Positions 42,454 to 56,547 of a DNA stretch of 64,000 nt are shown one piece after another; position 1 is the first letter of the stretch; each line of letters starts with the position of its first letter. Under the pieces are notes generated by a model. It was not told where the DNA came from and made no database searches. It saw only the letters and a program-made list of their open reading frames with translations. The position numbers were made by a program, and so were the translations under genes. Source of the stretch: Turneriella sp. (GTDB lineage Bacteria; Spirochaetota; Leptospiria; Turneriellales; Turneriellaceae); assembly GCA_965279515.1 (NCBI GenBank), contig CBDIID010000003.1, forward strand, positions 3,424,001 to 3,488,000, in the 5' to 3' direction.

Positions 42454-43715
42454 CAGCCGTGAAGATCCGCCGGCAGATGACCTTCTTACCCGACAGCGCC
42501 CGGGTAATCATCCGTCCTTTTATTCCGGCGGAAGTCACCCAGATCTCGAATATCATCGCACGCGCGCTGGCTTTAGATGATGAAGAGACAGAAACCGAAC
42601 TCGATATTGTGCGCGCTGAATTTGATTCACGGCATTTTGATATTGAATCGTTGCTTTTGGCGCATTATGAAAAGATCAGGCAGCATATCGCGCATCCGGA
42701 ATTCCTTTCACCTTCGCGCCGGCTGCTGATAGGCGCGCTGTTCTCGGGTGAATACGCGCTCGAATCGGCAGCGCTGTTTAACCCGTCGATTGTACCGCAT
42801 CCCGACCAGAGCGGCCTGGTCGAAGGTTCGCTGCGTTATATCATGAGCCTCAGGGCTACGGGAGAAGGGCATATCTCTTCGATTGAATTCCGTACGGGTA
42901 TTATCACGAGCGAAGGCAAGGTCAGTGTCGAACCGGTTTCACCGTATGTGACAGTGCCGGAAGTTTCACTCGCGCCTGGCTGCGAATATGAGTTGCATTT
43001 TGATTCGAAGCTGGCGATGAGCGAGCGCATCATTTTTCCCGTTTCAGCCAGCGAAAGCAATGGCATTGAAGATGCGCGTTTCGTCCGTTTCAACCATGAC
43101 GACAAACGTGTGATGTATTATGCTACGTATACCGCATACAATGGCCGCGAGATCACCCCGCAATTTATCGAGACTGCGGATTTCCGGAATTTTCGCATGC
43201 TGACCCTGAAAGGGAATGCAGTCCGCAACAAGGGTATGGCACTTTTTCCACGACGCGTGAACGGCAAGTTCGCGATGGTTTCGCGCCAGGATGATGAGAA
43301 TCTCTATATTATGTTTTCCGACGATCTCTATACCTGGAATGACATGCAGCTTTTGCGGAAACCGCAGCTGGCATGGGAGCTGGTGAAGACCGGCAATTGC
43401 GGATCGCCGATTGAGACCTCTGCGGGTTGGCTTTTGATCACGCACGGTGTCGGTCCGATGCGCAAGTATTGTTTAGGCGCAATACTCCTGGATAAGCAGG
43501 ATCCCACCCAGGTCATCGGCAGTCTCAGGGAACCGCTGCTCAAACCCGAAGGCAGCGAACGTGAAGGTTATGTGCCGAACGTTGTTTATAGTTGTGGTTC
43601 GCTGATCCATGGCCGCGACCTTGTTCTCGCGTATGCCATGAGCGATATCATCTCCGTGATTGCGACCCTGAAGGTCGATGACCTCATCGCCGCGTTGACC
43701 CGGCATCGCGGCTGA
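42450..43715 (+). CDS. glycoside hydrolase family 130 protein
   Basis: NGIEDARFV, YATYTAY, KGMALFPR, THGVGPMRKY, EREGYVPNVVYSCG. Confidence 0.9.
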   Translation: MTAVKIRRQMTFLPDSARVIIRPFIPAEVTQISNIIARALALDDEETETELDIVRAEFDSRHFDIESLLLAHYEKIRQHIAHPEFLSPSRRLLIGALFSGEYALESAALFNPSIVPHPDQSGLVEGSLRYIMSLRATGEGHISSIEFRTGIITSEGKVSVEPVSPYVTVPEVSLAPGCEYELHFDSKLAMSERIIFPVSASESNGIEDARFVRFNHDDKRVMYYATYTAYNGREITPQFIETADFRNFRMLTLKGNAVRNKGMALFPRRVNGKFAMVSRQDDENLYIMFSDDLYTWNDMQLLRKPQLAWELVKTGNCGSPIETSAGWLLITHGVGPMRKYCLGAILLDKQDPTQVIGSLREPLLKPEGSEREGYVPNVVYSCGSLIHGRDLVLAYAMSDIISVIATLKVDDLIAALTRHRG

Positions 43716-43716
43716 T

Positions 43717-44847
43717 TCAGATTAAAACCAGATGTACAAACTTCAGGTAGCGCTGCTCGTGCGAGCTGTGCAGAAACGGATGGTCGGGCGCCTGGCCCGA
43801 GACGCGCAGAATCTGTCCGCGCCGGCGTGCCAGTGACATTGCCTCGCGGATGATCTCGAAAAAATCTTCAAATGAAATATGGCTCGAGCACGAGCTCAGC
43901 GACAACTGGCCGCCGGCGATGACGCGTTTTGCCGATGCAGCAAAAAGTTCGGTATACTTCGCCACCGCGCGCTCTTTCTGTTCTTCGCTGTGCCCCATCG
44001 ACGGCGGGTCGACGATGACATGATCCCATTTTTCTTCGGCACCATTGAGGTATTCAAACACGTCGACGGCTAAACCCTCGTGCTTTTCTTTGGGCAGGCC
44101 GTTTAACAGCCAGTTCTCCTCAGAGCTGCGGATCGCCCCCTCTGCGACATCAAGGCTTGCGACCCTGGTTGCACCGCCGAGCCCCGCGTAGACGGAAAAG
44201 CCGCCGGTATAGCTGAAGAGATTGAGCACCGATTTGCCGCGGCTGATCGAACGCACGTACTGCCGGTTGTCACGCTGGTCTAAAAAGAAACCGGTCTTCT
44301 GTCCCTTGTCGATGTCGACGTTGAAGGCAACGCCGTTTTCGCGGATTTCCAGCACCGGGGCGGAGGGCTCTCCCGCGAGAACTTTGAGCTCGCCCTCGGC
44401 ATTGCGCCGGCTTTTCTCGACGACGGATTTGACCCTGACGTTTTTAAAAATCCAGTCGGCAATATGTGGCTTATCCCAGAATTCCGATGGACCGCGGCCG
44501 TCGAATTGCACCACCGCTGTCGGGCCATAGATGTCACAGACGAGTCCCGGCAGAAAGTCAGCCTCACCGTTGATGAGCCGGAACGCGGTAGTGTTTTCCA
44601 GGTTGAGATTGTTGCGCAGATCGAGCGCACGTTGCAGCTGCTTATCGAAGTACGCGGCATTGGGCGGCTTTTTCTCGAGGCTCAGCATGCGCAGTGAAAG
44701 CGGGCCATGGGGATCATACATCGCCCAGCCAAGTTCATCCCCCTTGTTATCGAGCACGCAGACCATCTGCGCGGCTTCGACTTTGGGCGGCTGCGCGAGC
44801 GCTTCGCGGTAGATCCAGGGATGGCCGCGCAGAAGCACGCGGCGCAA
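43717..44847 (-). CDS. RlmI-like rRNA m5C SAM-dependent methyltransferase
   Basis: GHPWIY, GQKTGFFLDQRDNR, VLNLFSYTGGFS, VIVDPPS; start uncertain. Confidence 0.92.
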   Translation of the reverse strand: MRRVLLRGHPWIYREALAQPPKVEAAQMVCVLDNKGDELGWAMYDPHGPLSLRMLSLEKKPPNAAYFDKQLQRALDLRNNLNLENTTAFRLINGEADFLPGLVCDIYGPTAVVQFDGRGPSEFWDKPHIADWIFKNVRVKSVVEKSRRNAEGELKVLAGEPSAPVLEIRENGVAFNVDIDKGQKTGFFLDQRDNRQYVRSISRGKSVLNLFSYTGGFSVYAGLGGATRVASLDVAEGAIRSSEENWLLNGLPKEKHEGLAVDVFEYLNGAEEKWDHVIVDPPSMGHSEEQKERAVAKYTELFAASAKRVIAGGQLSLSSCSSHISFEDFFEIIREAMSLARRRGQILRVSGQAPDHPFLHSSHEQRYLKFVHLVLI

Positions 44848-44925
44848 ATTTCGGTTGAGCTTAATCTTTAACAGAGGTTGCCAAGGCCCGGAGATTAAAC
44901 TGCTTCGTCCAGCCCAATCCTGCGC

Positions 44926-45096
44926 TTAGCGGGCTTTTTTAATGGCTTCGACCGTCGTGGCCAATACCTTCGCAATTTCGTCATCCGTGAGTTCAAAGCG
45001 ATCAAGAATTTCGACTTGTACGGCCAGGCTTGCCGTCATTTGATTGAGTACACAAAGATATGCCAACATCAACCGTACCGAACTATCTGCTTTCAT
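44926..45096 (-). CDS. small hypothetical protein, HTH-like C-terminus
   Basis: AAGGA RBS; MKADSSVRL...LTDDEIAKVLATTVEAIKKAR. Confidence 0.6.
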   Translation of the reverse strand: MKADSSVRLMLAYLCVLNQMTASLAVQVEILDRFELTDDEIAKVLATTVEAIKKAR

Positions 45097-45185
45097 GGGG
45101 AGTCCTTGAGGGAAAATTCGCCGGAGCGGCGTCGGGCAATAGTTCTCCCTCAACCGCCCCGTCAATAGATCGCCCTAAATTCGCG

Positions 45186-45656
45186 CTAGCGCGATAGAAA
45201 ATGAAACAGCGTGTCGTTCGCCCCGGTTCTGCGGCTCTGCTCGAGTTTCGCGTCCACCGAGAGCGGCCCGCCACCCACCACCGCGAGAATCACGTGGACG
45301 ATGAGGAGCATCACGACAAATTCGAGATCGGCGCCGTTACTGAAAAATCCCTCGCGCAGATGCACCAGGAGTACAGCCCCCGTCAGAATCGGAATCTGCA
45401 TAGCCGCCGCAAGACGCGTGATGAGCCCCATCATCAGCATCAATCCGCCGGCCAAATGCGCAAGGCCAATATACTGGGCGAGGCCCTGGTGTATCCCGAA
45501 GCCGATATGGTTTTGTTCCATAATCTTGATGAGCGTGTCCATGTTCGAGATAAAAAATACACCCTTCGCAAAAATCACCACCCCCGCCAGCATGCGCACG
45601 ATATCGAAAGCGTAAGGGTAACCTTTGTCAGCTCTTTCTTTCCAGTGTTTTAGCAT
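45186..45656 (-). CDS. DoxX family membrane protein
   Basis: GLITRLAA, GGGPLSVD, four TM segments. Confidence 0.9.
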   Translation of the reverse strand: MLKHWKERADKGYPYAFDIVRMLAGVVIFAKGVFFISNMDTLIKIMEQNHIGFGIHQGLAQYIGLAHLAGGLMLMMGLITRLAAAMQIPILTGAVLLVHLREGFFSNGADLEFVVMLLIVHVILAVVGGGPLSVDAKLEQSRRTGANDTLFHFLSR

Positions 45657-45763
45657 AGTATCCCCCTTCGACGGGAAGGTACATGGTTCAGCGGAGCGCA
45701 GCCATTAAAACAGAAGACATTGCTGTCATTTGATTCAGGCCGCGTGAAAGGTTTGCAGCCTGA

Positions 45764-46366
45764 TTATTTTGCCCATGCCAAACCTTCATCGGCATACTTG
45801 TTATCGGGAGACATCAGCTTCACACGTTCGAAATTTTGCCGCGCGGGGGATTTTTTCCCCTGTTTCAGCTGTGCCCAACCCAAGCCCATGAGTACCGTCG
45901 CGTCAGAAGGGAAGTCAGTCGCGAGATCGGCATACTGTTTTTCCGAACGCGGGAAATCCCCCGCGAGATAATATGCATAGGCGAGCTTGATGCGCGCCGT
46001 GTAGTTCTTGGGATCGCTGCGCAGCACTGCCTGCGCGGCGAGTGCTGCTTCATTATATTTACCCAGCGCGATGAGCGGTAAGAGCTTGCCTAACCGCGGC
46101 TCGAGCGATTCTGGTTTGAGAAGCAGCGCGTTCTGGTAGAGCTCGAGCGAGCGTGTGAAATGCCCCGCGAGGTAGGCGAGGTAGCCGGCGCGCAACTGGT
46201 AAAAATATTCTTTGGGATTTTCGGCAATGAGTTTTTCACCCGCGGCAAATGCCTCATTATATTTGCCATAATATTCGAGTGTGTATGTACTCTGCAGCAC
46301 TGAGGGGTCTATCCCCCTGATGGCGGCAGGCGCGAGTGCGAAGATCATTGTCAGAATTTTTTTCAA
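45764..46366 (-). CDS. exported TPR protein
   Basis: TPR pattern; probable TTG start at 46366 overlapping the upstream TGA, with GGGAG RBS. Confidence 0.85.
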   Translation of the reverse strand: MKKILTMIFALAPAAIRGIDPSVLQSTYTLEYYGKYNEAFAAGEKLIAENPKEYFYQLRAGYLAYLAGHFTRSLELYQNALLLKPESLEPRLGKLLPLIALGKYNEAALAAQAVLRSDPKNYTARIKLAYAYYLAGDFPRSEKQYADLATDFPSDATVLMGLGWAQLKQGKKSPARQNFERVKLMSPDNKYADEGLAWAK

Positions 46367-47718
46367 AATAAACTCCCTGTTGCTGCGAATGAGATTGTAC
46401 CCGATGTCGGTGTGTCGCCGTTTAAAGCCTTCCATTGGCCATAGGTGTAAGCACCCGAAATTTCAAAATAAGGGGATGGCTTCCAGGCGAGACGGCCATA
46501 ACCCTGCACGGTCATCTCATCGAGGCTGTAGGTGAGAATGGCGCCGTTGTCGAAGAGCGGCGTGTAGAGGCTGCCGTAGAGCCCGCCTGCGGACAGGCAT
46601 AGCGTGCCGAGACAATAATGCAGTGCGGCGCCACCAGCCGCGTAGAAATTCGTCACCTGCGAGAAACGGATAGCCTGCACGGTGCCCGAAATTCCCAGCG
46701 AGAGGGATTTCGTCAGCGGAAACATATATTGCGGTGTCAGCGCCGCTCCTTTGTGACTCGAGAAGATCAGCACATCGCCGCCGATCGTGAACCGCGAGGT
46801 AATGTGGTTTTTATACGCGGCGCTGAGTGTCACCGCGTTGTTGAGGAGAGAATAATTCGAAGACAGATAGTGACCCGTGAAAGAGATCTGTGAGAGATCA
46901 GAGAATAAAACTGCCGATGAGAGTTTTGCTTCGCGCGTCTCATAACCCGTCGTCGACGCCGGGTTGCCGATATTGCTCTGTGCATAACCTGCACCGACGC
47001 TCAGGCCCGAATTGAAATTCCAGAGGCCGAATACGCCAGCGTCATAACCCGACGATTTCATGCGCGATCCGGAGAATGCAATATTCTGGTAATAAGGTAT
47101 CAGCTGGCCCGCGGGCGCATAACTCAGCGAACGCGCGCCGTACTGGTGCATGAGATCGGCATAGATATTTTCGGCGCTCGATGAATCACCGTTCTCTTTA
47201 TAAGCGCTCGCCATGCGCAGCTTTACCGGGTAGTTTTGCGGGTCGATGGCCAGTGCGGCGCGGCCCCATTGGATGCTCTCGCCGTATTTTTCGGCGCCTA
47301 AGAGCGCCCACTGCGCGCCGGCTTTAGAATCGAGGTTCTGCGAAATCGCGTCAGCTTTGAGATAATCTTCAGCCGCCGCGGCATATTCGCCGAGCATCAG
47401 GTTGCAATACGCTTTGTTGTTGAGCGCGGTGATGTACTGCGGTTCGGTTTCGAGGAGTTTTTGCCAGATATTGAGGGCCGCAAGATAGTTGCCGGATTGC
47501 ATTTCGGCGACAGCAGTGCTGACGGCGGTGGTGGCGGTGTTTGCGTGAAGAGTTTGAACCCAAAAAAATAAGAATAACGTGATTACTATCGCCCCACCCC
47601 GGCCTACGGCCACCCCTCCCCAATTCCAAGCTCCCTTCCCCCAGACTTGGGGAAGGCGCTTGCGGCAGGCGCAAGCCTGCGGGGGAAGGGGGCGTCCTAC
47701 CCCGCCGAAAGCACCCAT
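46363..47718 (-). CDS. TPR plus C-terminal beta-barrel-like protein; start uncertain because a repeat sits in the 5' end (alternative GTG at 47613)
   Basis: Signal-like IVITLFLFFWVQTLHA, TPRs, aromatic amphipathic strands, terminal Phe. Confidence 0.8.
   Translation of the reverse strand: MGAFGGVGRPLPPQACACRKRLPQVWGKGAWNWGGVAVGRGGAIVITLFLFFWVQTLHANTATTAVSTAVAEMQSGNYLAALNIWQKLLETEPQYITALNNKAYCNLMLGEYAAAAEDYLKADAISQNLDSKAGAQWALLGAEKYGESIQWGRAALAIDPQNYPVKLRMASAYKENGDSSSAENIYADLMHQYGARSLSYAPAGQLIPYYQNIAFSGSRMKSSGYDAGVFGLWNFNSGLSVGAGYAQSNIGNPASTTGYETREAKLSSAVLFSDLSQISFTGHYLSSNYSLLNNAVTLSAAYKNHITSRFTIGGDVLIFSSHKGAALTPQYMFPLTKSLSLGISGTVQAIRFSQVTNFYAAGGAALHYCLGTLCLSAGGLYGSLYTPLFDNGAILTYSLDEMTVQGYGRLAWKPSPYFEISGAYTYGQWKALNGDTPTSGTISFAATGSLF
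47592..47692. repeat. palindromic repeat unit at the junction of the transporter and TPR genes
   Basis: CCCCACCCCGGCCTACGGCCACCCCTCCCCA, then CCTTCCCCCAGACTTGGGGAAGG and GCAGGC-GCAA-GCCTGC. Confidence 0.85.
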
Positions 47719-49889
47719 TTGGCTCCATCCCTTTGCGCCGTTATTTTTCCAGGAAAGCTGCCCGAAAGCTCGGCCGAGGTTGTAAGTACCAAGCGTGCGC
47801 CGTTCGTAACAGTCGAAACGATCGGCGCGGTTGCATGCGATTGTGGGACCGCATTCCAGCTGAGCGAGACGCGATCGGTGAAGGGCAGCAAAATATCTTT
47901 CAGGATGCGGAACGGCAGCGCGGTGAAATATTTGTAAGAGATGCGCTCGCCATAGGCGAATTTTGCTGCCGAGAACGGGACCCGGTAGTAGGCGTTAAAA
48001 AGTAAAAAGAGCGCGCTGTGGCGGCTGCCGGTGTAGTCGAGCGCGGCGAACCAGTCGTTCGACGACGAGTACAAAAGCCGGTCGCCGCTTTGGTTTTCAA
48101 TGAAACGCGTGCCGAGAAAATCGATTTTGACTTCCCATTCTTCGCTCACCGTTTTGAAGTCGGGTGTCTCCAGGTTCACACGCATGACCTGCCCTGGCGC
48201 GAGCGTGAAGAAGGTCTTGAGGTTGAAGTCAGGTGAGAGATTCGCGACGACTTCGTCTTCAGCTGGTATGCCATTGAAGTGGATTTTCGAAACGCCGTTA
48301 TGCAGCACATACTGTGTGAGCGGCACCGGCACCGTGGCGCTGCCGATTTCAGGCGTCGCCTGAAAGTGCAGGTGCAGGTGGGGTTCGGCCGAGCGGCCCG
48401 AGTTGCCGGCGAGACCGAGTTTCGTGCCCGCGATGACATAGTCGCCTTCTTTGACCAGAACCGAATTTTTCTTCAGATGACAGACGAGAGAGAACAGCGC
48501 GGGACCATGCTGGATTAGAACGAGATTACCCCAGTTCTCGCGCAGATTCATCTCGCCGGGTAGATTGTCGTCGAGGTGCGCCACAACCTTGCGCACGGTT
48601 CCCGCCGCGACGGCCAAAACCGGCAGACCGAAAGTGAAATAGTCTTCTAAAGAGGGCGATTGACTTTTGCGCAGCGAGCCATCCTCACTGAGTGCCATAA
48701 AATCGAGACTCGCATACCACTCACCCTGGTGCGTGTATTTGCCGTGGTAACCCTGCGAGACCTTCCATTTGCCCCAGAACGGCAGGCGGATGTCGAGACC
48801 CAATTCGCCGAAGCGGCCCTGACGCGATTTGAAGAAGTCAAGGTTGTGCTCGGGTGAACCCGGCAGAAAATCGACGGGCCGCAGGTTCTTGTTATAAAGA
48901 AGCTTGATGCAATACAAAAAGAGCAGTGTCGTCATGGCAAACGGTAGCGTGAGCACAGGCATGTTAAAACTGACGAAAAAGATCTTGATGAATGACGCAA
49001 CCGTGGCGGTGGTCAGCGTCGCAAGGATGGCCAACACAAACGCGGCCGGACCCGGCACCAAAAAGATGCCACCCAGCGCAATCGAAGTCAGAATATAGTT
49101 AAAGGCGACGAGACCACCCGTCATATCGTTCATATCGCCTTTAAGGATCAGGTGAAATAACACACCTGTGAAAAAACCCATGAGCGACAGAAGAAATCCT
49201 AATCTGCTGGAGATGAGAAGGGCGAGCATGATGACCAGCCCCGCCCACGGGCTCGACTGGAAAAAAATCGCCCCGAGCGATTTCAGGTAGTAGAGCGCGT
49301 AGCGCGGCAGTTCGGGAAAAGATGCATCGATACTGAGGACGGTTTGTTTTTCGAGCGCAGTGCCGTCGTAGTTGTAGAAGGCGAGGTAACTGATCGAGCT
49401 CACGAGCACAAAGGGAATTGAAAGCGCGGGAATATTGAAAAAATAACCGAAGATGTGGTCGAGCGCGATGTTGACGAAGATCAGTAGCACGACGGCTACG
49501 AAGAGAATAAAGAGCGCCGTTGGCGAGAAGGCGTAATAGTAGCTGAACGACAGGCCGAGCAAGAGTGCATTGAAGCCGATGAGGCCCTTGCGGATTTTAT
49601 CCTCATGCACGCCGATGACGCGCGCCAGCAGGTTGGCGACGAGGATGGCAAAGACACCGAAGACGCCGGCCTTTAAGTTAAAGAACGTGGCTGCGAGGGC
49701 GATGACGCCGATTGCCTTGCGATCGCTGAAGAGAATGTTCGAGTAGGAGCGGAGTAAGGCTTCGACGACCCCACCCCCCAACCCCCTCCCCACAAATGTG
49801 GAGAGGGGGGGCCTCAGAGCCCCTCTCCACGTCAGTGGGGAGGGGTGGCCGTAGGCCGGGGTGGGGTTAGGCGGCGCTTGGAGTGACAT
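47697..49889 (-). CDS. urea-transporter-family domain fused to an M23 peptidase domain and a C-terminal domain
   Basis: GLIGFNALLLG, AFNYILTSIALGG, LTLPF; then THQGEWYASLDF, WGNLVLIQH, GNSGRSAEPHLHLH. Confidence 0.88.
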   Translation of the reverse strand: MSLQAPPNPTPAYGHPSPLTWRGALRPPLSTFVGRGLGGGVVEALLRSYSNILFSDRKAIGVIALAATFFNLKAGVFGVFAILVANLLARVIGVHEDKIRKGLIGFNALLLGLSFSYYYAFSPTALFILFVAVVLLIFVNIALDHIFGYFFNIPALSIPFVLVSSISYLAFYNYDGTALEKQTVLSIDASFPELPRYALYYLKSLGAIFFQSSPWAGLVIMLALLISSRLGFLLSLMGFFTGVLFHLILKGDMNDMTGGLVAFNYILTSIALGGIFLVPGPAAFVLAILATLTTATVASFIKIFFVSFNMPVLTLPFAMTTLLFLYCIKLLYNKNLRPVDFLPGSPEHNLDFFKSRQGRFGELGLDIRLPFWGKWKVSQGYHGKYTHQGEWYASLDFMALSEDGSLRKSQSPSLEDYFTFGLPVLAVAAGTVRKVVAHLDDNLPGEMNLRENWGNLVLIQHGPALFSLVCHLKKNSVLVKEGDYVIAGTKLGLAGNSGRSAEPHLHLHFQATPEIGSATVPVPLTQYVLHNGVSKIHFNGIPAEDEVVANLSPDFNLKTFFTLAPGQVMRVNLETPDFKTVSEEWEVKIDFLGTRFIENQSGDRLLYSSSNDWFAALDYTGSRHSALFLLFNAYYRVPFSAAKFAYGERISYKYFTALPFRILKDILLPFTDRVSLSWNAVPQSHATAPIVSTVTNGARLVLTTSAELSGSFPGKITAQRDGAKWVLSAG
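49769..49866. repeat. double-hairpin palindromic repeat read in frame at the transporter N-terminus
   Basis: CCCCCTCCCCACA-AA-TGTGGAGAGGGGG and CCCCTCTCCAC-GTCA-GTGGGGAGGGG; 49836-49866 is the exact reverse complement of 47592-47622. Confidence 0.88.
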
Positions 49890-49895
49890 GAACGC

Positions 49896-51263
49896 TTAGC
49901 TTTCCAACGCAACCATATCTTCCATCGTCTCGCGGCGCTTGATGAGTTTGACTTCGCCTTTGGCTGACACCATCACAACCGCGGGTTTCATTTCGATAAA
50001 CTGCATCGACTGCGTCACGTTGTACGCGCCGACCGGGTGTATCACCACCTGCTCGCCGCGGTGCATGTTCGGCAGCAGGCATTTTTCGCGCACGACGTCG
50101 ATGTTCATGCAGAGCGGCCCGTAGAGAATGACATCTTCCCAGCTGCCCGAATAGTATTGCGTCGGCGAAACTTTCAGGTCATACCATGTGGACGTATAAA
50201 GAAGGTTTACACCCGCATCGAGAATGAGCGCGCGCTGGCCGCTTGCCAGCATTTTCGAACCGACGACCGACGAGACAAGAAAACCCGCCTCGTCGACCAA
50301 TGCCCGACCAGTTTCCAGAAAAAGCTGCGGTGGAGAATCCTCGCCGGGAAAATTTTCATAGAGCGTATCGCAAATCGCTTCGGCATATGCTTCAAAGCTG
50401 GGAATCCACGAGCTGTCGACCTTGTAGTGCGCCTTGAGTTTATTGCGCGAGGCAAAGCCGCCACCGAGATCGATGTAACGCAAAGGCTGGCCGAGTTCTT
50501 CGCGCAGCTGTTTGTAGAATTTGCTGACCTTCTCCGCGGCTTTTTTGTACGGCGCGGTTTCATACATGAAGGTACCGATATGCGAGTGCACGCCGATGAT
50601 CTTCAGTTTGCCGTCAACAGTAGCCATGCGGGCCGCTTCGAGTGCATGACCGCTTTCGAGATTAAAGCCGAAACGGCTCCATTGCGGCACCATGCCGGTG
50701 TCGAGGTTCAGGCGCAGCGCAATTTCAACGGGGCGGCCGAGTTCGTCGGATATCCTCTTGAGGTCGCGTATCTCGTCGAGGTGGTCGGCATGGATCTTGG
50801 CGCCTTCGGAAACGGCTTTTTTCAGAATTTCATAATTCTTATAAGGGCCGTTGAAGATAATCTTGTCGCCGGGAATGCCATTGTGCCGTGCCTTGAGGTA
50901 CTCAAAGCCCGAAACGACTTCGGCCCAGCTGCCTTCGCTGTGGAAGACATTGCAGATCGCATCGAGGTAGTTTGTCTTATACGACCACGCGGCCTGGAAC
51001 GAGGGGTAGCGCGAAGAGAACGCCTGGTTGAGTTCGCGCACCTTGCGGCGCAGCGTGTTCTCCGAAAAGACGAAGAGCGGCGAACCGAACTCTTTCACCA
51101 GATCGTCGATCGCCACACCGTCGATGTTCATCACAGGTTCAGGTACCGAGTAGCCGCCGAACTTGTTTGCGGCGCCCATATACTGTTTGCGGATGATTGG
51201 CCGGGAGTAGGGTTTGCGCACTGAGGTGCTTCCGGCTTGTTCTGTTGTATCTGTTTTTTTCAT
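49896..51263 (-). CDS. PLP-dependent decarboxylase, Orn/DAP/Arg (LysA-like) family
   Basis: WSYKTN (PLP Lys), FNGPYK, HSHIGT, DLGGGF, ETGRALV, GPLCMNID, GAYN. Confidence 0.92.
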   Translation of the reverse strand: MKKTDTTEQAGSTSVRKPYSRPIIRKQYMGAANKFGGYSVPEPVMNIDGVAIDDLVKEFGSPLFVFSENTLRRKVRELNQAFSSRYPSFQAAWSYKTNYLDAICNVFHSEGSWAEVVSGFEYLKARHNGIPGDKIIFNGPYKNYEILKKAVSEGAKIHADHLDEIRDLKRISDELGRPVEIALRLNLDTGMVPQWSRFGFNLESGHALEAARMATVDGKLKIIGVHSHIGTFMYETAPYKKAAEKVSKFYKQLREELGQPLRYIDLGGGFASRNKLKAHYKVDSSWIPSFEAYAEAICDTLYENFPGEDSPPQLFLETGRALVDEAGFLVSSVVGSKMLASGQRALILDAGVNLLYTSTWYDLKVSPTQYYSGSWEDVILYGPLCMNIDVVREKCLLPNMHRGEQVVIHPVGAYNVTQSMQFIEMKPAVVMVSAKGEVKLIKRRETMEDMVALES

Positions 51264-52381
51264 GCGACTGCCTTATGTGTCCCCACCCCCTGCCCCGCAC
51301 GCGGGGGAGGCTGGGAGGGGGAGCGGGGTGGCGCGTATGAAATCATCCCAACCGTCGACAGCGATTCAATGGTCGCCATCGGCACAATCTCATCGCGCGC
51401 GTGGCGGATGAATACCATGCCGACTTCGTATTCTGTGCGGGGCTCAACGCTCTCACCCAACGCGAGGGCGACATGCATTGCTGGCAGGTTCATGCCCGCG
51501 CGCGTCGCGAGGTAGGTCCATGCGGGAAAACGCGGATTCATTTCGATGAGAAAGACTTCGTCGGTCTTGTTCTCGACGATGAACTCGAGTTCGAAACCGC
51601 CGTCCCAGTTTAAAAACTGGATGAGCTTGCGCGTCATCTCGAGAATTTTTTCGTTTTTGATCGTGACCCCCGACCAGGCCTTGCCTTTGTCGGTGACGAA
51701 GAGCTTTTTCATCGCCACGGCGCCATAGAGTTTGCCGCGTTTTGCGAGGCCGGCGACGTTCATCTCTTCGCCGGAAATCATTTTCTGCGCGATGGCCGGG
51801 ACTCCCCACTGCGAAGCGAGCTTGTAAAACCAGCCGACAGCTTCTTCGGGGGAATACGCGGCATACGCCTCATAATACTGCCCCTTGACCAACAGGGGAA
51901 ATCCCAGTTTATCGAAAGATTCGCGCAGCGCCGCCACGTCGGAAATCCGCACCGTCTCGGGCGTCTTGACAATGTCGGTCGGAATTTTCTCTGCAAGCGT
52001 CGGTTTGTCGCGGAGTGCCAGGCTCTCTTTGAGGGGCAAGAGGAGTTTGATACCGAGATAGCGCAGCTCACCTTCGATTTTGATATAATTTTCGAGCTCA
52101 GAATCGAGCGTCGGCAGAATAACATCGATGCGTTCTTTTTTGTGGATCTCGGCGATACGGCTCAGCAGCGCGTCTGGCCCGGTGTTCGGGTAGGGCGTTA
52201 GGTAACAGGCCGAGACAAGATCATTCATGTAGTTACCCGCATCAAGCACGCCGTAGGTGATGCCGATATGGCGGTGGCGCGCCCCGGATTCTTTGAGCGA
52301 GCGTAAGACCGCGAGGCCAGGAGCCGGGCTATCGGCTGCATTCAGGCCCGTCACACAGACGGTGGTGCGGCGGCTTACCAT
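51260..52381 (-). CDS. ATP-grasp carboxylate-amine ligase
   Basis: LGFPLLVKG, FELEF, LIEMNPRFPAW. Confidence 0.9.
   Translation of the reverse strand: MVSRRTTVCVTGLNAADSPAPGLAVLRSLKESGARHRHIGITYGVLDAGNYMNDLVSACYLTPYPNTGPDALLSRIAEIHKKERIDVILPTLDSELENYIKIEGELRYLGIKLLLPLKESLALRDKPTLAEKIPTDIVKTPETVRISDVAALRESFDKLGFPLLVKGQYYEAYAAYSPEEAVGWFYKLASQWGVPAIAQKMISGEEMNVAGLAKRGKLYGAVAMKKLFVTDKGKAWSGVTIKNEKILEMTRKLIQFLNWDGGFELEFIVENKTDEVFLIEMNPRFPAWTYLATRAGMNLPAMHVALALGESVEPRTEYEVGMVFIRHARDEIVPMATIESLSTVGMISYAPPRSPSQPPPRAGQGVGTHKAVA
51280..51332. repeat. palindromic repeat unit translated in frame at the ATP-grasp C-terminus
   Basis: CCCCACCCCCTGCCCCGCACGCGGGGGAGGCTGGGAGGGGGAG; closely matches the 12404 unit. 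Confidence 0.82.
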
Positions 52382-52635
52382 CTTGTGCCTGCCGCGATTA
52401 ATCCCGCTTCCCTGAATTGCAGCAAAGCGTTGCTGACATCTTCGAGGGCTTGTGGTCCCGCGACTTCAAATTCGGCTGCCAGCGATTCGGCGATCTGCTG
52501 TTGTTGCAAGCCGTTCTTCAGCGATTTTAGAATGAAGATCGCCGATTCGTTGAGTGTGAAGGTATTCCCCGTCGCCGGGTCGAACAGAAACCCGGTCTCG
52601 GAAAGCGCGAGGTTTTTGATCTTGTTGAGCTCCAT
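52375..52635 (-). CDS. PqqD-family / RiPP recognition element protein
   Basis: 86 aa; 'GFLFDPATGNTFTLNESAIFI...IAESLAAEFEV...ALEDVSNALLQFREAGLI'. Confidence 0.88.
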   Translation of the reverse strand: MELNKIKNLALSETGFLFDPATGNTFTLNESAIFILKSLKNGLQQQQIAESLAAEFEVAGPQALEDVSNALLQFREAGLIAAGTRW

Positions 52636-52728
52636 ACAGGGGTGAGCTGCAAGCGGCCAAACCCGGACAAATTTTTGTTGTCTCGCCGAATCGCTTTCCG
52701 GCAATTAAAGGAGCTTTCGCCGGAATCT

Positions 52729-53649
52729 ATGCAGGAAATCCCGCTACACCAGATCGATAATTTTATGCTGCTCATGAAATGGGCACACCAAAAAGGCTTC
52801 GAAATGGCTGAACCCCACATCATGGAACCCCTGCGGCTCTATTATGGCCGCAAAGACCAGGAGGTGCACGATAACCTCTACAAGAACCTCGAGATACAGA
52901 AGAAGGTGAAGGAGTGGCGGATTGTCGCCAATATCTACCGCCATATTTTTCATGTCCTGTGTTTCGAGGCCGACCATCATCCTTTATTCAAGATGCTGAG
53001 TTCTTTCCTCATCGATCTTCAGGCCGAATCAGGGTTGCGTAAAACCACGTTCGCTTTTGAGTTTTTTAAAGCGTATGAATTTTCGCTGAAGAACCTGCAA
53101 GGCATCGTTTCCCAACAAGTGATGACGGGGATCCAGGAAGTGTTTGAAAGACACGACGATGTGCATGTCGTGGTTTCGCATGATCTGACCACGAACCAGC
53201 GTGAGCTGCTCAACCGCGAGGCGGGTGAGCTCTATAACAAAATTGAGCTGGCGTACGCGCGCGGCGACGAAGCGCAGATCAGTTACCTGCTTGCACAGTT
53301 CACCGGGCGCTTCTGTAATTTTCCTGAAGTTAAGTTCCGCGACGAAGTCGATGCCATGATCATGAAGATTGCCGAGAATAACGGCGCCTTCAAACAAGAT
53401 ATGCGCTCGCGCTTGGCCGTCCGCCTTTTTCAGTCGATCGCACGCTCGGCCGAGAAGATGGATATCAAGACGGCGGTGCGCGGCATCACCACCTACATCA
53501 TCACTTTCCAGGACGATCTGAGTTTGCCGTACCGTGAAGAACTCGATCATATTGAAGAGAAGATGTATAGTTTCATTCAGCAACATAATCTTTGGCATCG
53601 CGTGAAGTTGCAGCCCGGCCCGGGAAAGCCGCAAGTCGTCAGATCTTAG
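52729..53649 (+). CDS. hypothetical alpha-helical protein
   Basis: Long ORF with genome-like codon use, co-oriented with the STAS gene. Confidence 0.7.
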   Translation: MQEIPLHQIDNFMLLMKWAHQKGFEMAEPHIMEPLRLYYGRKDQEVHDNLYKNLEIQKKVKEWRIVANIYRHIFHVLCFEADHHPLFKMLSSFLIDLQAESGLRKTTFAFEFFKAYEFSLKNLQGIVSQQVMTGIQEVFERHDDVHVVVSHDLTTNQRELLNREAGELYNKIELAYARGDEAQISYLLAQFTGRFCNFPEVKFRDEVDAMIMKIAENNGAFKQDMRSRLAVRLFQSIARSAEKMDIKTAVRGITTYIITFQDDLSLPYREELDHIEEKMYSFIQQHNLWHRVKLQPGPGKPQVVRS

Positions 53650-53656
53650 GAGCAGT

Positions 53657-53992
53657 ATGAGTATCAGAGTTTCAAAACGCAATACCGAGAAAGACGCGAT
53701 CTTTCAGCTCGAAGGCCGGCTCGACACTGCGGGCAGTGCAATCTTAAAGCTCGAACTGGATATGGCGACACAGAACCCCACGGGTAATATCATCATTGAT
53801 ATGAGCAAGGTCAGCTTTATCAGCTCGGCGGGCATCGGCATCACCGTCAAGGCGCAATCGATTCTGAAGCAAAAGGGTTTTGAGGTGCGTGTTGCGGCGG
53901 CGACCGAAGAGGTGAAGAAGGTCTATGACTTGCTGGGTTTTTCGCATGTCGTGAAGATCTTCGCGACGCTCAACGACGCGCTGAAAGCCTGA
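53657..53992 (+). CDS. STAS-domain anti-sigma-factor antagonist
   Basis: LEGRLD, IIDMSKVSFISSAGI. Confidence 0.93.
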   Translation: MSIRVSKRNTEKDAIFQLEGRLDTAGSAILKLELDMATQNPTGNIIIDMSKVSFISSAGIGITVKAQSILKQKGFEVRVAAATEEVKKVYDLLGFSHVVKIFATLNDALKA

Positions 53993-54039
53993 TTTTCGCT
54001 TCGCGCGACAATCTTATCTGCCGAAGATCAAGATAGTAT

Positions 54040-55002
54040 ATGCGATGGATTCGATTGCCGGGGAAGCTCCTATTCTGCTTCCTGTTCATTTCAATTCTGA
54101 CGGCCAGTATTGCGCAGGGGGCCGAGGATAACACAGAACCCGAATTGTCCAAAATCGATAAGTTCGGCCCCAATCCTGGCAATCTTGCGATGTACGAATA
54201 TGTGCCGGAATTCGTATCCGAAAACAAACCGGCGCTCGTTGTCGCCTTACACGGCTGCAGCGGTTCGGCTAAACAATTCTCTAAGGCGGGATTCAACCAG
54301 CTCGCGGAAAAATACGGGTTTTTTGTGCTCTACCCGGAGCAAAAAACTGCAAACAATAATATCCGCTGTTTCAATCATTCGCGACCCAACATGGCTGATG
54401 CCCGCGCCCGCGAAACCGAATCGGTGTTGCAAATGGTCCGATACATGATCGCCGAGCATGGCATCAGTCCCAAGCATGTTTTTATTACCGGGTTTTCATC
54501 GGGTGGGCAGTTTGCGAATATTCTGGCGGCGAGCTATCCCGAGACATTCCGGGCTGCGGCGATTATCGCTGCCGGAGGGTATGTCTGCAAACCCGGCCAT
54601 ACCGGAATAAATGAATTTGTCGATTGTGACGACGAAGAAGACGAAATGGACGAGGCGCTGCTGACGCTTCCAGGCAAACCCCTGCGCTGGCCCAAGATTA
54701 GTATCTGGCATGGAAAAAAGGATAAAAACGTGCCTTACAATTCCATGGGGCTTGCGGTCGAACAATGGAAGTTTGCGCACAAGATTCGCCGTAAGCGCCA
54801 TACCCGGAAAGCATTGCCGGGAGACATACTCTATGAAGCGTACAAAACTTCCCGGGGCAATGTCATGATCGAGAGTTATTCGCTGAATGCCCAGGCGCAC
54901 ACGGTTCCTGTCAGCAAAGATTGCGGCGTTCCGGGCGGGGATTTCAGCCTCGGCAAAATATGCTTTGCGCGCAAAGCGATCCAGTTCTTTGGTATTCGCT
55001 AA
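54040..55002 (+). CDS. secreted PHB-depolymerase-family esterase
   Basis: Signal peptide; FGPNPGNLAMYEYVP, LVVALHGC, LYPEQ, lipase box GFSSG. Confidence 0.9.
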   Translation: MRWIRLPGKLLFCFLFISILTASIAQGAEDNTEPELSKIDKFGPNPGNLAMYEYVPEFVSENKPALVVALHGCSGSAKQFSKAGFNQLAEKYGFFVLYPEQKTANNNIRCFNHSRPNMADARARETESVLQMVRYMIAEHGISPKHVFITGFSSGGQFANILAASYPETFRAAAIIAAGGYVCKPGHTGINEFVDCDDEEDEMDEALLTLPGKPLRWPKISIWHGKKDKNVPYNSMGLAVEQWKFAHKIRRKRHTRKALPGDILYEAYKTSRGNVMIESYSLNAQAHTVPVSKDCGVPGGDFSLGKICFARKAIQFFGIR

Positions 55003-55032
55003 AGCCTGTCGCGGAGACAGGCATTAAACCCC

Positions 55033-56547
55033 GTGGAGAAGCCCCGCAAAAAAATCTCGATCATCACGAAAATTTTTTCCGTTTTTCTCGCGATCACGGC
55101 GCTCGATCTTTCGGCAATTTACATCTTCACCGCGACAGGGCAGATCGATCAGATCGGCCGCAACGGTCTTCTGATCGCCGAAAATGCCGCGCTGAAAATT
55201 CTGCAGTTATTGCGCGATGTGCAAAATCCCGATCCGCTGAGCGATGCCGCCTTCCAAAAAAAGTTCGCCGCCGCTGCGGAATCTTCGGCCGCCTCTTTCA
55301 AAGATTGTGTGGCGGTGGGCCCTGATGGAAAACCCGTCGGCGCTGCCGCCGGGGCCGTCTCGCCGCGTGCACTGAAGGCGTTGCGGCTCTACGAGGCCGA
55401 GGGGCGGCTGTTCTACAGCGACCTTGCGCTCGGCGATTTTTCGGCCGATGTCTTTGTGCCCTTCCGTCCCGGCCTTAAGGCGGGGCTTTACGTCTTTGCC
55501 TGCAACGTGCCTTTGCAGTCGATCCGCGAATCTTTTGACCGGTTGCTGCGCCTAAGCCTCATCATTCTGCTCGTCACGCTCGTCATGCAGGCAGGGCTCG
55601 CGTGGTTTATTTATATGATTTTTATCCGCCGGCTGCGCGCGCTCGAAAAGGCCACGGTCAAAATCGGCGAGGGCGATTTCAGCGAAGTCATCAAGACCGG
55701 CAAGCGCAGCGATGAGATCGATCATCTTGCGCAGACGTTCAACGAGATGCGCCTGGCGCTCGCCGAAAAGACGCGCGTGCTCGAAGATACGCTCATGGAC
55801 CTTGAAAAGGCCAACTTCAATCTCGAGGGCGACCTGATTCTCGGCGAAGAGATTCAGCAGAGCATTTTGCCCGAAAAGACGGCGGGCAAAAATCTGGACT
55901 GGCAGGTGACATACCGCCCCTTGAGTAAAGTATCGGGGGATCTCTACGATGTCTATGACCTGGCCGGCGGCGCCACGGGAATTCTGCAGTTCGATGCCTC
56001 GGGCCATGGTGTACCCGCGGCGCTTTTGACCATGATGGCGAAGACGGCGTTTGTCGAAGCGATTCAAAAGACCGTGTGGCCGAACCAGGTCATTGCCTTC
56101 GTCAACGACGAACTTTCGTCGCACCTGCAAAAAACCGGTAATTTTCTGACGGCATTCTATGCTGTGGTGCGCCCCAACGGTAAGATGGTGTATTGCAATG
56201 CCGCGCATACGCAGGTCGTGATTCTGCGCGCCGGGGGTAAAATCGAGATACTCGATACAACATCGCTGAGTGTTGGTTTTGCGCCGCCGGGGGGTGAGTC
56301 CTTTCATGCAGCCGAGGTCGAGCTGCACCGGGGCGACCGCGTCATCATTCATACCGATGGCCTCAGTGAAACCGTAACAAAATCGGGAAAACCATTTGAA
56401 ACCGAAGGGCTGACGGCGATACTCGCGCGCTACGCGAAAGTAGACCTGAAAACCATGCACGCCGCAATCATCGACGAATGGAATGCCCAGGTCGAGCGCA
56501 CCGCGATTGAAGACGACGTCACCGTCGTTTCATTTGAATTCCGATGA
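55033..56547 (+). CDS. membrane HAMP plus SpoIIE/PP2C phosphatase
   Basis: Two TM, HAMP 'DEIDHLAQTFNEM', VSGDLYD, DASGHGVPAAL, HTDGL, EDDVT. Confidence 0.92.
   Translation: MEKPRKKISIITKIFSVFLAITALDLSAIYIFTATGQIDQIGRNGLLIAENAALKILQLLRDVQNPDPLSDAAFQKKFAAAAESSAASFKDCVAVGPDGKPVGAAAGAVSPRALKALRLYEAEGRLFYSDLALGDFSADVFVPFRPGLKAGLYVFACNVPLQSIRESFDRLLRLSLIILLVTLVMQAGLAWFIYMIFIRRLRALEKATVKIGEGDFSEVIKTGKRSDEIDHLAQTFNEMRLALAEKTRVLEDTLMDLEKANFNLEGDLILGEEIQQSILPEKTAGKNLDWQVTYRPLSKVSGDLYDVYDLAGGATGILQFDASGHGVPAALLTMMAKTAFVEAIQKTVWPNQVIAFVNDELSSHLQKTGNFLTAFYAVVRPNGKMVYCNAAHTQVVILRAGGKIEILDTTSLSVGFAPPGGESFHAAEVELHRGDRVIIHTDGLSETVTKSGKPFETEGLTAILARYAKVDLKTMHAAIIDEWNAQVERTAIEDDVTVVSFEFR

Follow-up and report, generated by a model that had tools for sequence, protein, structure and literature searches.

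We analysed a 64,000-nucleotide stretch of Turneriella sp. DNA (GenBank assembly GCA_965279515.1, contig CBDIID010000003.1, positions 3,424,001 to 3,488,000; hereafter the window), and within it a six-gene cassette on the minus strand, at positions 45764-52635. The cassette encodes a discrete RiPP (peptide made by the ribosome and modified after translation) recognition element (RRE), an ATP-grasp ligase, a pyridoxal phosphate (PLP) decarboxylase, a fusion of a urea transporter (UT) fold with an M23 peptidase, and two proteins with tetratricopeptide repeats (TPRs). A preliminary description made from the DNA letters had reported six linked genes with these domains; all six open reading frames (ORFs) were confirmed, and the domain calls agree with Pfam and NCBIfam. 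The features are listed below, with their basis in brackets.

52375..52635, minus strand: discrete RRE / PqqD-like protein, 86 amino acids (aa) (Pfam PF05402; PDB profile matches)
51260..52381, minus strand: ATP-grasp ligase, 373 aa, of the carbamoyl phosphate synthetase (CPS)-like (PRK12767-like) group (Pfam, alignment)
51866..51886, minus strand: ligase residues K166 to A172, a B-domain loop of reduced length (alignments with CPS and Ddl)
49896..51263, minus strand: fold-III PLP decarboxylase, 455 aa, FigC-like (profile and structure match)
51156..51209, minus strand: decarboxylase tail, residues 19-36, predicted to be disordered (motif conservation; predicted local distance difference test score, pLDDT)
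47697..49889, minus strand: UT-M23 fusion gene (Pfam, AlphaFold model)
about 48914-49763, minus strand: UT-fold channel of UT-M23 (Pfam, structure match)
about 48258-48797, minus strand: M23 zinc peptidase part of UT-M23 (Pfam, structure match)
47697-48218, minus strand: C-terminal beta-rich domain of UT-M23, with no assigned family (structure model)
46363..47718, minus strand: TPR protein with a YaiO-like outer-membrane beta-barrel and a terminal Phe; probably starts around 47610 (Pfam, feature score)
45764..46366, minus strand: signal-peptide TPR protein, about 200 aa from TTG 46366 (the longest ORF starts at 46435)
49771..49885, no strand: GC-rich hairpin repeat, in frame at the UT-M23 gene start (31-nt perfect inverted copy)

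The Pfam matches comprise PqqD PF05402 (E=1e-13; 51.7 bits against a cut-off of 23.4), ATPgrasp_Ter PF15632 (3e-10) and Orn_Arg_deC_N (4e-34), UT PF03253 (1e-61) and Peptidase_M23 (1.5e-14) in the fusion gene, and TPRs in the fifth and sixth genes. In NCBIfam, the enzymes and the channel all score far under the cut-off of the nearest curated equivalog. The PqqD-like protein scores 42.7 on the HPr-rel-A model TIGR04353 (cut-off 35); no kinase-like or transferase partner of HPr-rel-A was found in the operon or among the scanned recurrent flank genes, the partner models not having been searched genome-wide. Neighbouring genes overlap or nearly touch: the RRE and ligase genes overlap by 7 nt, ligase and decarboxylase meet at an ATGA, 6 nt separate decarboxylase and UT-M23, UT-M23 and barrel overlap by 22 nt, and barrel and TPR genes meet at a TTGA, provided that the sixth gene starts at TTG 46366, as is likely.

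The preliminary description had proposed a survey of neighbourhood conservation as a check on its reading, and such a survey finds the genes kept together. Our conservation set combined 13 genome loci chosen by UT-M23, which are circular as evidence for the presence of UT, with the best 80 of 547 metagenome matches chosen by the ligase, and counts were limited to loci with enough flank. The RRE gene lies upstream in 76/76 loci, the decarboxylase gene downstream in 80/81 (locus L072 being the exception), and UT-M23 is present in 61/61. In a second set of 32 further genome stretches, chosen by decarboxylase or ligase and several of them ending at contig edges, UT was found in 32, the ligase in 31, the RRE in 29 and the TPR protein in 23. 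The six genes form a true operon that is co-conserved far beyond chance. The cassette occurs in Spirochaetota, Bacteroidota and Myxococcota, with the nearest relatives, at 70-86% identity, in a Spirochaetes bacterium, Turneriella sp. and Leptospiraceae; a homolog is also listed for Mucilaginibacter. Its presence is patchy: counting the central genome of each set, it was found in 6/301 genomes of the window's phylum, 31/401 of a Bacteroidota-centred set (about 8%) and 22/401 of a Myxococcota-centred set (5%). Flanking genes differ between loci, and catabolic genes do not recur among them. A plasmid collection gave no match to either the decarboxylase or the UT domain.

The RRE raises the question of what it binds, as the preliminary description had seen no short precursor ORF. 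In a PDB profile search, its nearest solved relatives are the lasso peptide RREs TbiB1 (5V1U, E=1e-11) and TfuB1 (6JX3, E=2e-10), and the recognition class of lasso RREs is given in passages of PMC12710340 as W/Y/LxxP. A motif of this kind is present in the cassette on the decarboxylase itself, which carries an N-terminal extension that is not found in more distant relatives. With the decarboxylase N-terminus anchored on a profile, the pattern [YFW]xxPx[ILVF] was found on the tail in 122/126 loci, compared with a 5% background in 48-residue windows taken at random. Each of the 122 motif-bearing loci (100/100 unique tails) also has a Lys 15 residues past the aromatic residue, a feature that was not selected for. 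In the Turneriella tail, YxxPxI is followed by G-x-x-N-K-F-G, which contains Lys34, and residues 20-34 have pLDDT < 50. Two of the four loci without the motif are cut by a contig start, one is represented by a second enzyme (the cassette decarboxylase of that locus has both motif and Lys), and one, a phage copy, truly lacks it. A model of the RRE in complex with tail residues 13-46 scored 0.49 (0.48-0.51) against 0.08 for the best control, which we graded as weak support; the runs share at least 96% of contacts, and partner pLDDT is at least 56. For calibration, the mark for a complex was reached by 116/157 solved and 2/215 mismatched pairs, but by no more than 18/157 of the solved pairs, and by both mismatches, with a score of 0.60 or under.

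A separate precursor was sought among ORFs of 10-100 aa in the 93 loci and the window region, with about 10 kb of flank; the lower limit was set at 10 aa because precursors of 21-22 residues had been overlooked before (passages of PMC13622209). Among 23,683 short ORFs, 78 bore the strict motif; these were scattered and unrelated, none lay in the window, and no short precursor ORF was conserved across the 93 loci. The full tail pattern occurs genome-wide in three frames, and the decarboxylase is the one real gene among these. Searching for shorter proteins yielded 32 matches, and the four inspected are decarboxylase fragments or chimeras that run into the decarboxylase body. On these grounds we rejected a hidden short precursor. 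The earlier observation stands for the window, with the qualification that a leader motif is present after all, on an enzyme; the RRE does not appear to be an orphan. It is quite likely that the decarboxylase tail is the RRE ligand and stands in for the missing precursor.

The closest solved relative of the decarboxylase is FigC (7KH2, E=5e-86), with a template modelling (TM) score of 0.80 for the fold. The PLP Lys96 and Cys385 are invariant, and Met follows the Cys in 50/50 sequences. FigC pocket residues were taken from passages of PMC7857480 and mapped onto the cassette enzyme: T327, Y331, M355 and Y383 have kept equivalents in T357 (45/50), Y361 (48/50), M386 (50/50) and Y414 (50/50), and the citrate-binding H357 and R387 are replaced by Ile and Gln (50/50 each). 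Unlike in diaminopimelate decarboxylases (DAPDCs), the catalytic Cys is not followed by an acidic residue, and the specificity helix is devoid of Arg. The scores for LysA (TIGR01048, 235.7 against a cut-off of 297.9) and FslC (NF041039, 228 against 500) both fall short. A LysA-type gene (Cys-Glu) and an ornithine decarboxylase (ODC)-type gene (Cys-Asp) lie elsewhere in the same genome, both distant on the tree. The preliminary description had held that its reading would fall if this were the housekeeping LysA; the sub-cut-off score, the substrate residues and the separate LysA-type gene rule that identity out. Because the pocket resembles that of FigC, and because the acid after the Cys and the specificity-helix Arg are lacking, the residues point to a substrate amino acid whose side chain would end in an uncharged amide, which is what the upstream amide ligase would make. 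In P0294, a related decarboxylase is joined to a domain of the N-acyl amino acid synthase (FeeM) type, a further pairing of acylation with subsequent decarboxylation.

In the ligase, the ATP and metal residues K126, K166, E206, E266, E280, N282 and R284 are invariant in 40 sequences and kept in 118-120 of 120. The Gly-rich B-domain loop of ATP-grasp enzymes closes over the ATP phosphates. Aligned with CPS and Ddl, the cassette ligase has four residues fewer in this loop, and 117/120 homologs read KG-x4-A, with no Gly inside the loop. As a control, nine loops were read in eight further ATP-grasp ORFs from the genome: these are longer and Gly-bearing, and the tip of several is a Lys or Arg; three weak matches gave no readable loop. 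A search for longer forms returned 15 proteins, of which 13 are ligase-decarboxylase fusions of the cassette family; on a tree built by a quick method only, fusion took place on three or more separate occasions. In each of the 13 the RRE motif is retained where the decarboxylase part begins inside the chain, and the RRE site thus does more than hold two separate enzymes together. At position 16 of the tail, the fusions have Lys in two cases, Arg in ten and neither in one. The Arg-clade fusions have all ATP and PLP residues intact, and the otherwise invariant ligase residues D17, Y170, T230 and K232 are changed in them. On the quick tree, both this clade and the lineage of P0164, P0177 and phage L144 are nested within Lys-bearing forms, which makes Lys ancestral there. 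Given that the fusions keep the motif, that 10/13 have Arg for Lys and that the ligase loop is short, a non-covalent role for the tail, as lid or docking arm, is more probable than that of a covalent carrier. The conserved turn of the tail, G-x-x-[NS]-[KR]-aromatic-G, could stand in for the absent ligase loop, which would explain both the exchange of Lys for Arg and the retention of the motif in fusions. Other candidate fusions were set aside: a Psychrobacillus ligase-decarboxylase fusion (P0167) has a normal Gly loop and lies outside the cassette family, an RRE-ligase fusion (P0036) is weak evidence because its cluster also has members of unfused length, and two decarboxylase-UT joins (P0158, P0195) were left out of the count as apparent products of frameshifts.

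The AlphaFold model of UT-M23 (mean pLDDT 77.7) matches the urea transporter dvUT (3K3F; Z 35.8, root-mean-square deviation 2.2) and, in its M23 part, M23 domains at Z about 13. The M23 zinc ligands (H..D, HxH) and the catalytic His are present in 45/45 sequences at all five positions. The number of Lys and Arg per short loop alternates between high and low across the ten loops and peaks at 3.16 after the last helix, beyond which no later membrane segment was found in the protein (hydropathy at most 1.44). From this positive-inside alternation and the known UT topology, the peptidase is very probably on the cytoplasmic face, and would then be unable to reach the sacculus. Processing of an exported peptide or of the sacculus by M23, which the preliminary description had envisaged, is therefore unlikely. 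With filter positions numbered as in dvUT, Phe is found at F27 in 42/45 sequences, at F80 in 36/45 (plus six with Tyr), at F190 in 40/45 and at F243 in 25/45; Ser or Thr occupies T130 in 43/45 and T294 in 30/45, and E187 is kept in 0/45, so the outer site is altered. The channel scores 146 on TIGR03441 (UT), against a cut-off of 275. Its structural neighbours include the Amt-fold sensor 6EU6 (Z 12). The C-terminal domain had no usable atlas match, and its best structural rows (Z about 7) reflect a common sheet arrangement. The C-terminal half of the fifth gene product resembles YaiO-type outer-membrane barrels (feature score 0.95), with some likeness to Slam as well.

Several loci vary around this plan. 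Just upstream of 12 Bacteroidota-type cassettes (L004:6403-6972, L044:8906-9499, L063:187-780 and nine more) are genes for AraC regulators whose Cys-rich N-terminus resembles a metal site; given these, the operon may be metal-responsive in cassettes of this type. Secreted proteins of about 270 aa, with C-terminal domains of the type IX secretion system (T9SS)/FlgD type, are encoded directly upstream and co-oriented in several loci (for example L010:5476-6315, L013:6493-7323, L029:1620-2456 and L019:311-1120), mostly where the barrel is short and has no TPRs. In a further sub-type (L054:9313-9738, L082:9310-9738, L023:4123-4686), the TPR gene is replaced by one for a secreted protein of 140-190 aa that belongs to no Pfam family; the replacing gene lies between barrel and RRE. 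A variant with a sirtuin in the place of M23 was looked for in sets of 9 and 12 loci and not found.

The explanation that we consider best, at a probability of roughly 45%, is a docked, non-covalent assembly of RRE, tail and ligase that is coupled to export. The PqqD-like protein would clamp the lasso-leader-like tail of the decarboxylase and dock it on the ATP-grasp ligase; at about even odds, the part played by the tail is non-covalent, that of a docking arm and perhaps also of the lid missing from the ligase. The two enzymes would then form the side-chain amide of an amino acid before decarboxylating it, an order that the FigC-like pocket makes probable. A gamma-glutamyl amide converted to a gamma-aminobutyric acid (GABA) amide, or an N-acyl-ornithine or -lysine converted to an acyl-diamine, are candidate products, any one of which is doubtful. 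The product would be clipped at the urea-channel-like pore by the zinc peptidase, if this faces the cytoplasm as predicted, with TPR protein and outer-membrane barrel as the likely way out. YaiO- and PgaA-like TPR-barrels are better known from export systems, and UT channels are passive, so that solutes pass either way; we lean slightly towards an outward direction. Of the earlier proposal of a pathway to an amide-linked amine or peptide, the amide/amine core remains the best reading, now joined to an envelope conduit; an orphan RRE and a peptidase on the envelope side are unlikely.

Several observations weigh against such an assembly. The Lys is kept in every stand-alone copy of the cassette, which a covalent carrier explains better, and the idea of a lid is also weakened by divergent decarboxylases in which Thr, His or Pro occupies the basic position of the tail. 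The score of the RRE-tail model falls in the weak range and may reflect memory of lasso RRE-leader structures. A phage contig (L144:3665-5922) encodes a ligase and decarboxylase pair with the same short loop and no RRE, YxxP motif or channel, indicating that the clamp is not always needed. The TPR gene is present in 33/38 loci and the barrel gene in 34/38, and both are missing or replaced elsewhere. Finally, a UT pore of urea size, with three of the four filter Phe positions kept, may block a product of several residues. A more adventurous version has the RRE as an enzyme-assembly clamp, the decarboxylase tail as the piece that makes the ligase active site complete, and repeated gamma-glutamylation and decarboxylation growing a nylon-4-like oligo-GABA, cut by the channel-bound M23 and secreted by the YaiO/PgaA-like TPR-barrel. 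We consider this improbable, and the nylon-4 hydrolases described in passages of PMC13269358 are AmpC-like rather than M23 enzymes, which lends the polyamide idea no support; if true, it would be a natural bacterial polyamide pathway.

The alternatives share the same parts list and differ in what the tail and the peptidase do. Lys34 could be a built-in swinging arm that the RRE presents to the ligase, to which the ligase attaches a side-chain carboxyl, as BtrJ does on BtrI, and from which the membrane-tethered M23 releases the product, thereby recycling the arm, after the decarboxylase has trimmed it. The universal Lys in motif-bearing loci, its disordered surroundings, its ancestral state on the quick tree and the PylC-like N-terminal domain matched by 13/40 ligases all fit such a covalent carrier, as do two precedents: the related BtrK acts on a carrier-bound gamma-glutamyl group (passages of PMC7857480), and a YxxP-bearing 22-mer is the scaffold in fosfazinomycin assembly (passages of PMC13622209). 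However, Arg replaces Lys in ten of 13 fusions that look catalytically intact and in the P0164/P0177/L144 lineage, and other divergent members have Thr, His or Pro; even if the first objection is softened by the changes at D17, Y170, T230 and K232, with which the Arg clade may act differently, we regard a covalent carrier as unlikely, if a serious contender. Rather less probable is a regulatory switch in which the ligase writes and M23 erases a modification on the tail or another protein as UT senses a small solute. Such a switch would account for a peptidase fixed on the cytoplasmic face of a channel, for the variable outer filter positions, for the Amt-fold sensor among the structural neighbours and for the metal-site AraC regulators upstream, but it leaves the retained barrel and TPR genes and the pocket for amide-capped substrates without explanation.

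Import or salvage, in which barrel, TPR protein and channel take in a small amide, M23 hydrolyses it and ligase and decarboxylase convert the products, also merits little weight. The passive nature of UT channels would permit it, and secreted proteins with T9SS/FlgD tails stand directly upstream in several loci; the export associations of TPR-barrels and the lack of recurrent catabolic flank genes argue the other way. Editing of cell-wall precursors, with a diamine or aminoacyl branch added to cytoplasmic peptidoglycan precursors and trimmed by M23, draws on the relationship of M23 to peptidoglycan endopeptidases and on PBP2/RodA genes upstream in three loci. It is very unlikely, given the patchy presence of the cassette, the predicted cytoplasmic location of M23, the absence of a role for RRE and barrel, and a decarboxylase without DAPDC substrate residues. 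Least probable of all is a RiPP cluster of the ordinary kind, whose precursor gene would be very short or lie far off: 21-22 aa precursors have indeed been overlooked before (passages of PMC13622209), and our screen reached about 10 kb of flank, but no short ORF was conserved in the 93 loci, the tail pattern occurs in no real gene of the genome other than the decarboxylase, and the inspected shorter-protein matches (4 of 32) run into the decarboxylase body.

The RRE is most similar to the lasso B1 proteins (TbiB1 5V1U/5V1V, TfuB1 6JX3), and its partner bears a motif of the YxxPx[IL] class; unlike in lasso systems, an enzyme of 450 aa bears the motif, which stays internal in fusions, and the cassette has no lasso cyclase, B2 peptidase or separate precursor. 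Butirosin biosynthesis (BtrI/BtrJ/BtrK) offers the same order of ATP-grasp ligation, by BtrJ, and fold-III decarboxylation. BtrK acts on glutamylated BtrI (passages of PMC7857480). No Pfam family of phosphopantetheinylated carriers was found among the six genes and five neighbours, and no small flank gene recurs; the RRE, channel-peptidase and envelope genes have no butirosin counterpart, and BtrK ranks below FigC and the DAPDCs as a match to the cassette decarboxylase. The rhizoferrin system FigA/FigC (FslA/FslC), with SbnH and AcsE, provides the best match to the cassette decarboxylase in its N-citrylornithine decarboxylase FigC/FslC, with a Cys-Met loop and an open pocket for an amide-capped amino acid, but the cassette ligase is an ATP-grasp enzyme rather than an NRPS-independent siderophore (NIS) synthetase, and Ile and Gln replace H357 and R387. 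In fosfazinomycin, passages of PMC13622209 describe an RRE and a YxxP peptide, FzmZ, that serve the assembly of a non-peptide product with release by a peptidase; FzmZ, however, is a 22-mer of its own that receives its modification at the C-terminus, whereas the cassette motif is fused to an enzyme. The UT fold and the intact M23 zinc site recall dvUT (3K3F) and M23 endopeptidases, but here they are fused in one chain, with M23 predicted to be cytoplasmic, the outer filter altered and a C-terminal domain added.

The remaining features lie around or beneath the operon. GC-rich hairpin repeats are read through in frame where genes begin or end, giving Pro/Gly-rich tails: a genomic repeat supplies the last 20 or so codons of the ligase and the first 40 or so of UT-M23. 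The repeat at 49771..49885 has related hairpins at 47586-47715 and 51272-51340, one hairpin repeat has 47 merged genomic sites, and the repeat does not belong to the conserved cassette. Two relatives (L001, L006) have like extensions at the same gene starts. No Rfam family matched positions 43000-56000 at the gathering score, and promoter and terminator scans were near shuffle levels (8 versus 4.8 and 15 versus 10.2). Divergent from the operon, at 52642-53649 on the plus strand, is a gene for a 335-aa helical protein of no family, which is kept in Turneriella-like relatives and has one distant paralog, at C3:605055. Just downstream, at 45186-45656 on the minus strand, lies a DoxX-family membrane gene that was not seen there in L001, L002 or L006. 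On the phage-like contig L144, 2.4 kb separate the pair from a gene for a family A DNA polymerase, and an MT-A70 methyltransferase gene is near; that the pair serves DNA base modification is no more than a guess.

The cassette is a widespread and apparently undescribed system, in which known folds are arranged in a way that fits no known class. We found no published description of it in the full-text literature searched, a scope outside which subscription papers and the RRE-Finder supplements lie, and passages of PMC7470986, PMC12710340 and PMC13622209 do not describe it. According to passages of PMC7470986, RiPP discovery uses RREs as a marker that does not depend on class, and discrete RREs of the lasso type stand in their thousands without adjacent lasso machinery. 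For one group of such lone RREs, the cassette offers a testable answer, namely that an enzyme carries the leader as a fused part, and the section of the cassette concerned consists of three small soluble proteins, RRE, ligase and decarboxylase, that are open to direct testing. A cytoplasmic M23 peptidase tethered to a channel, if the predicted topology is right, would be a use not expected for the M23 family, and the RRE may here assemble or switch on a two-enzyme complex.

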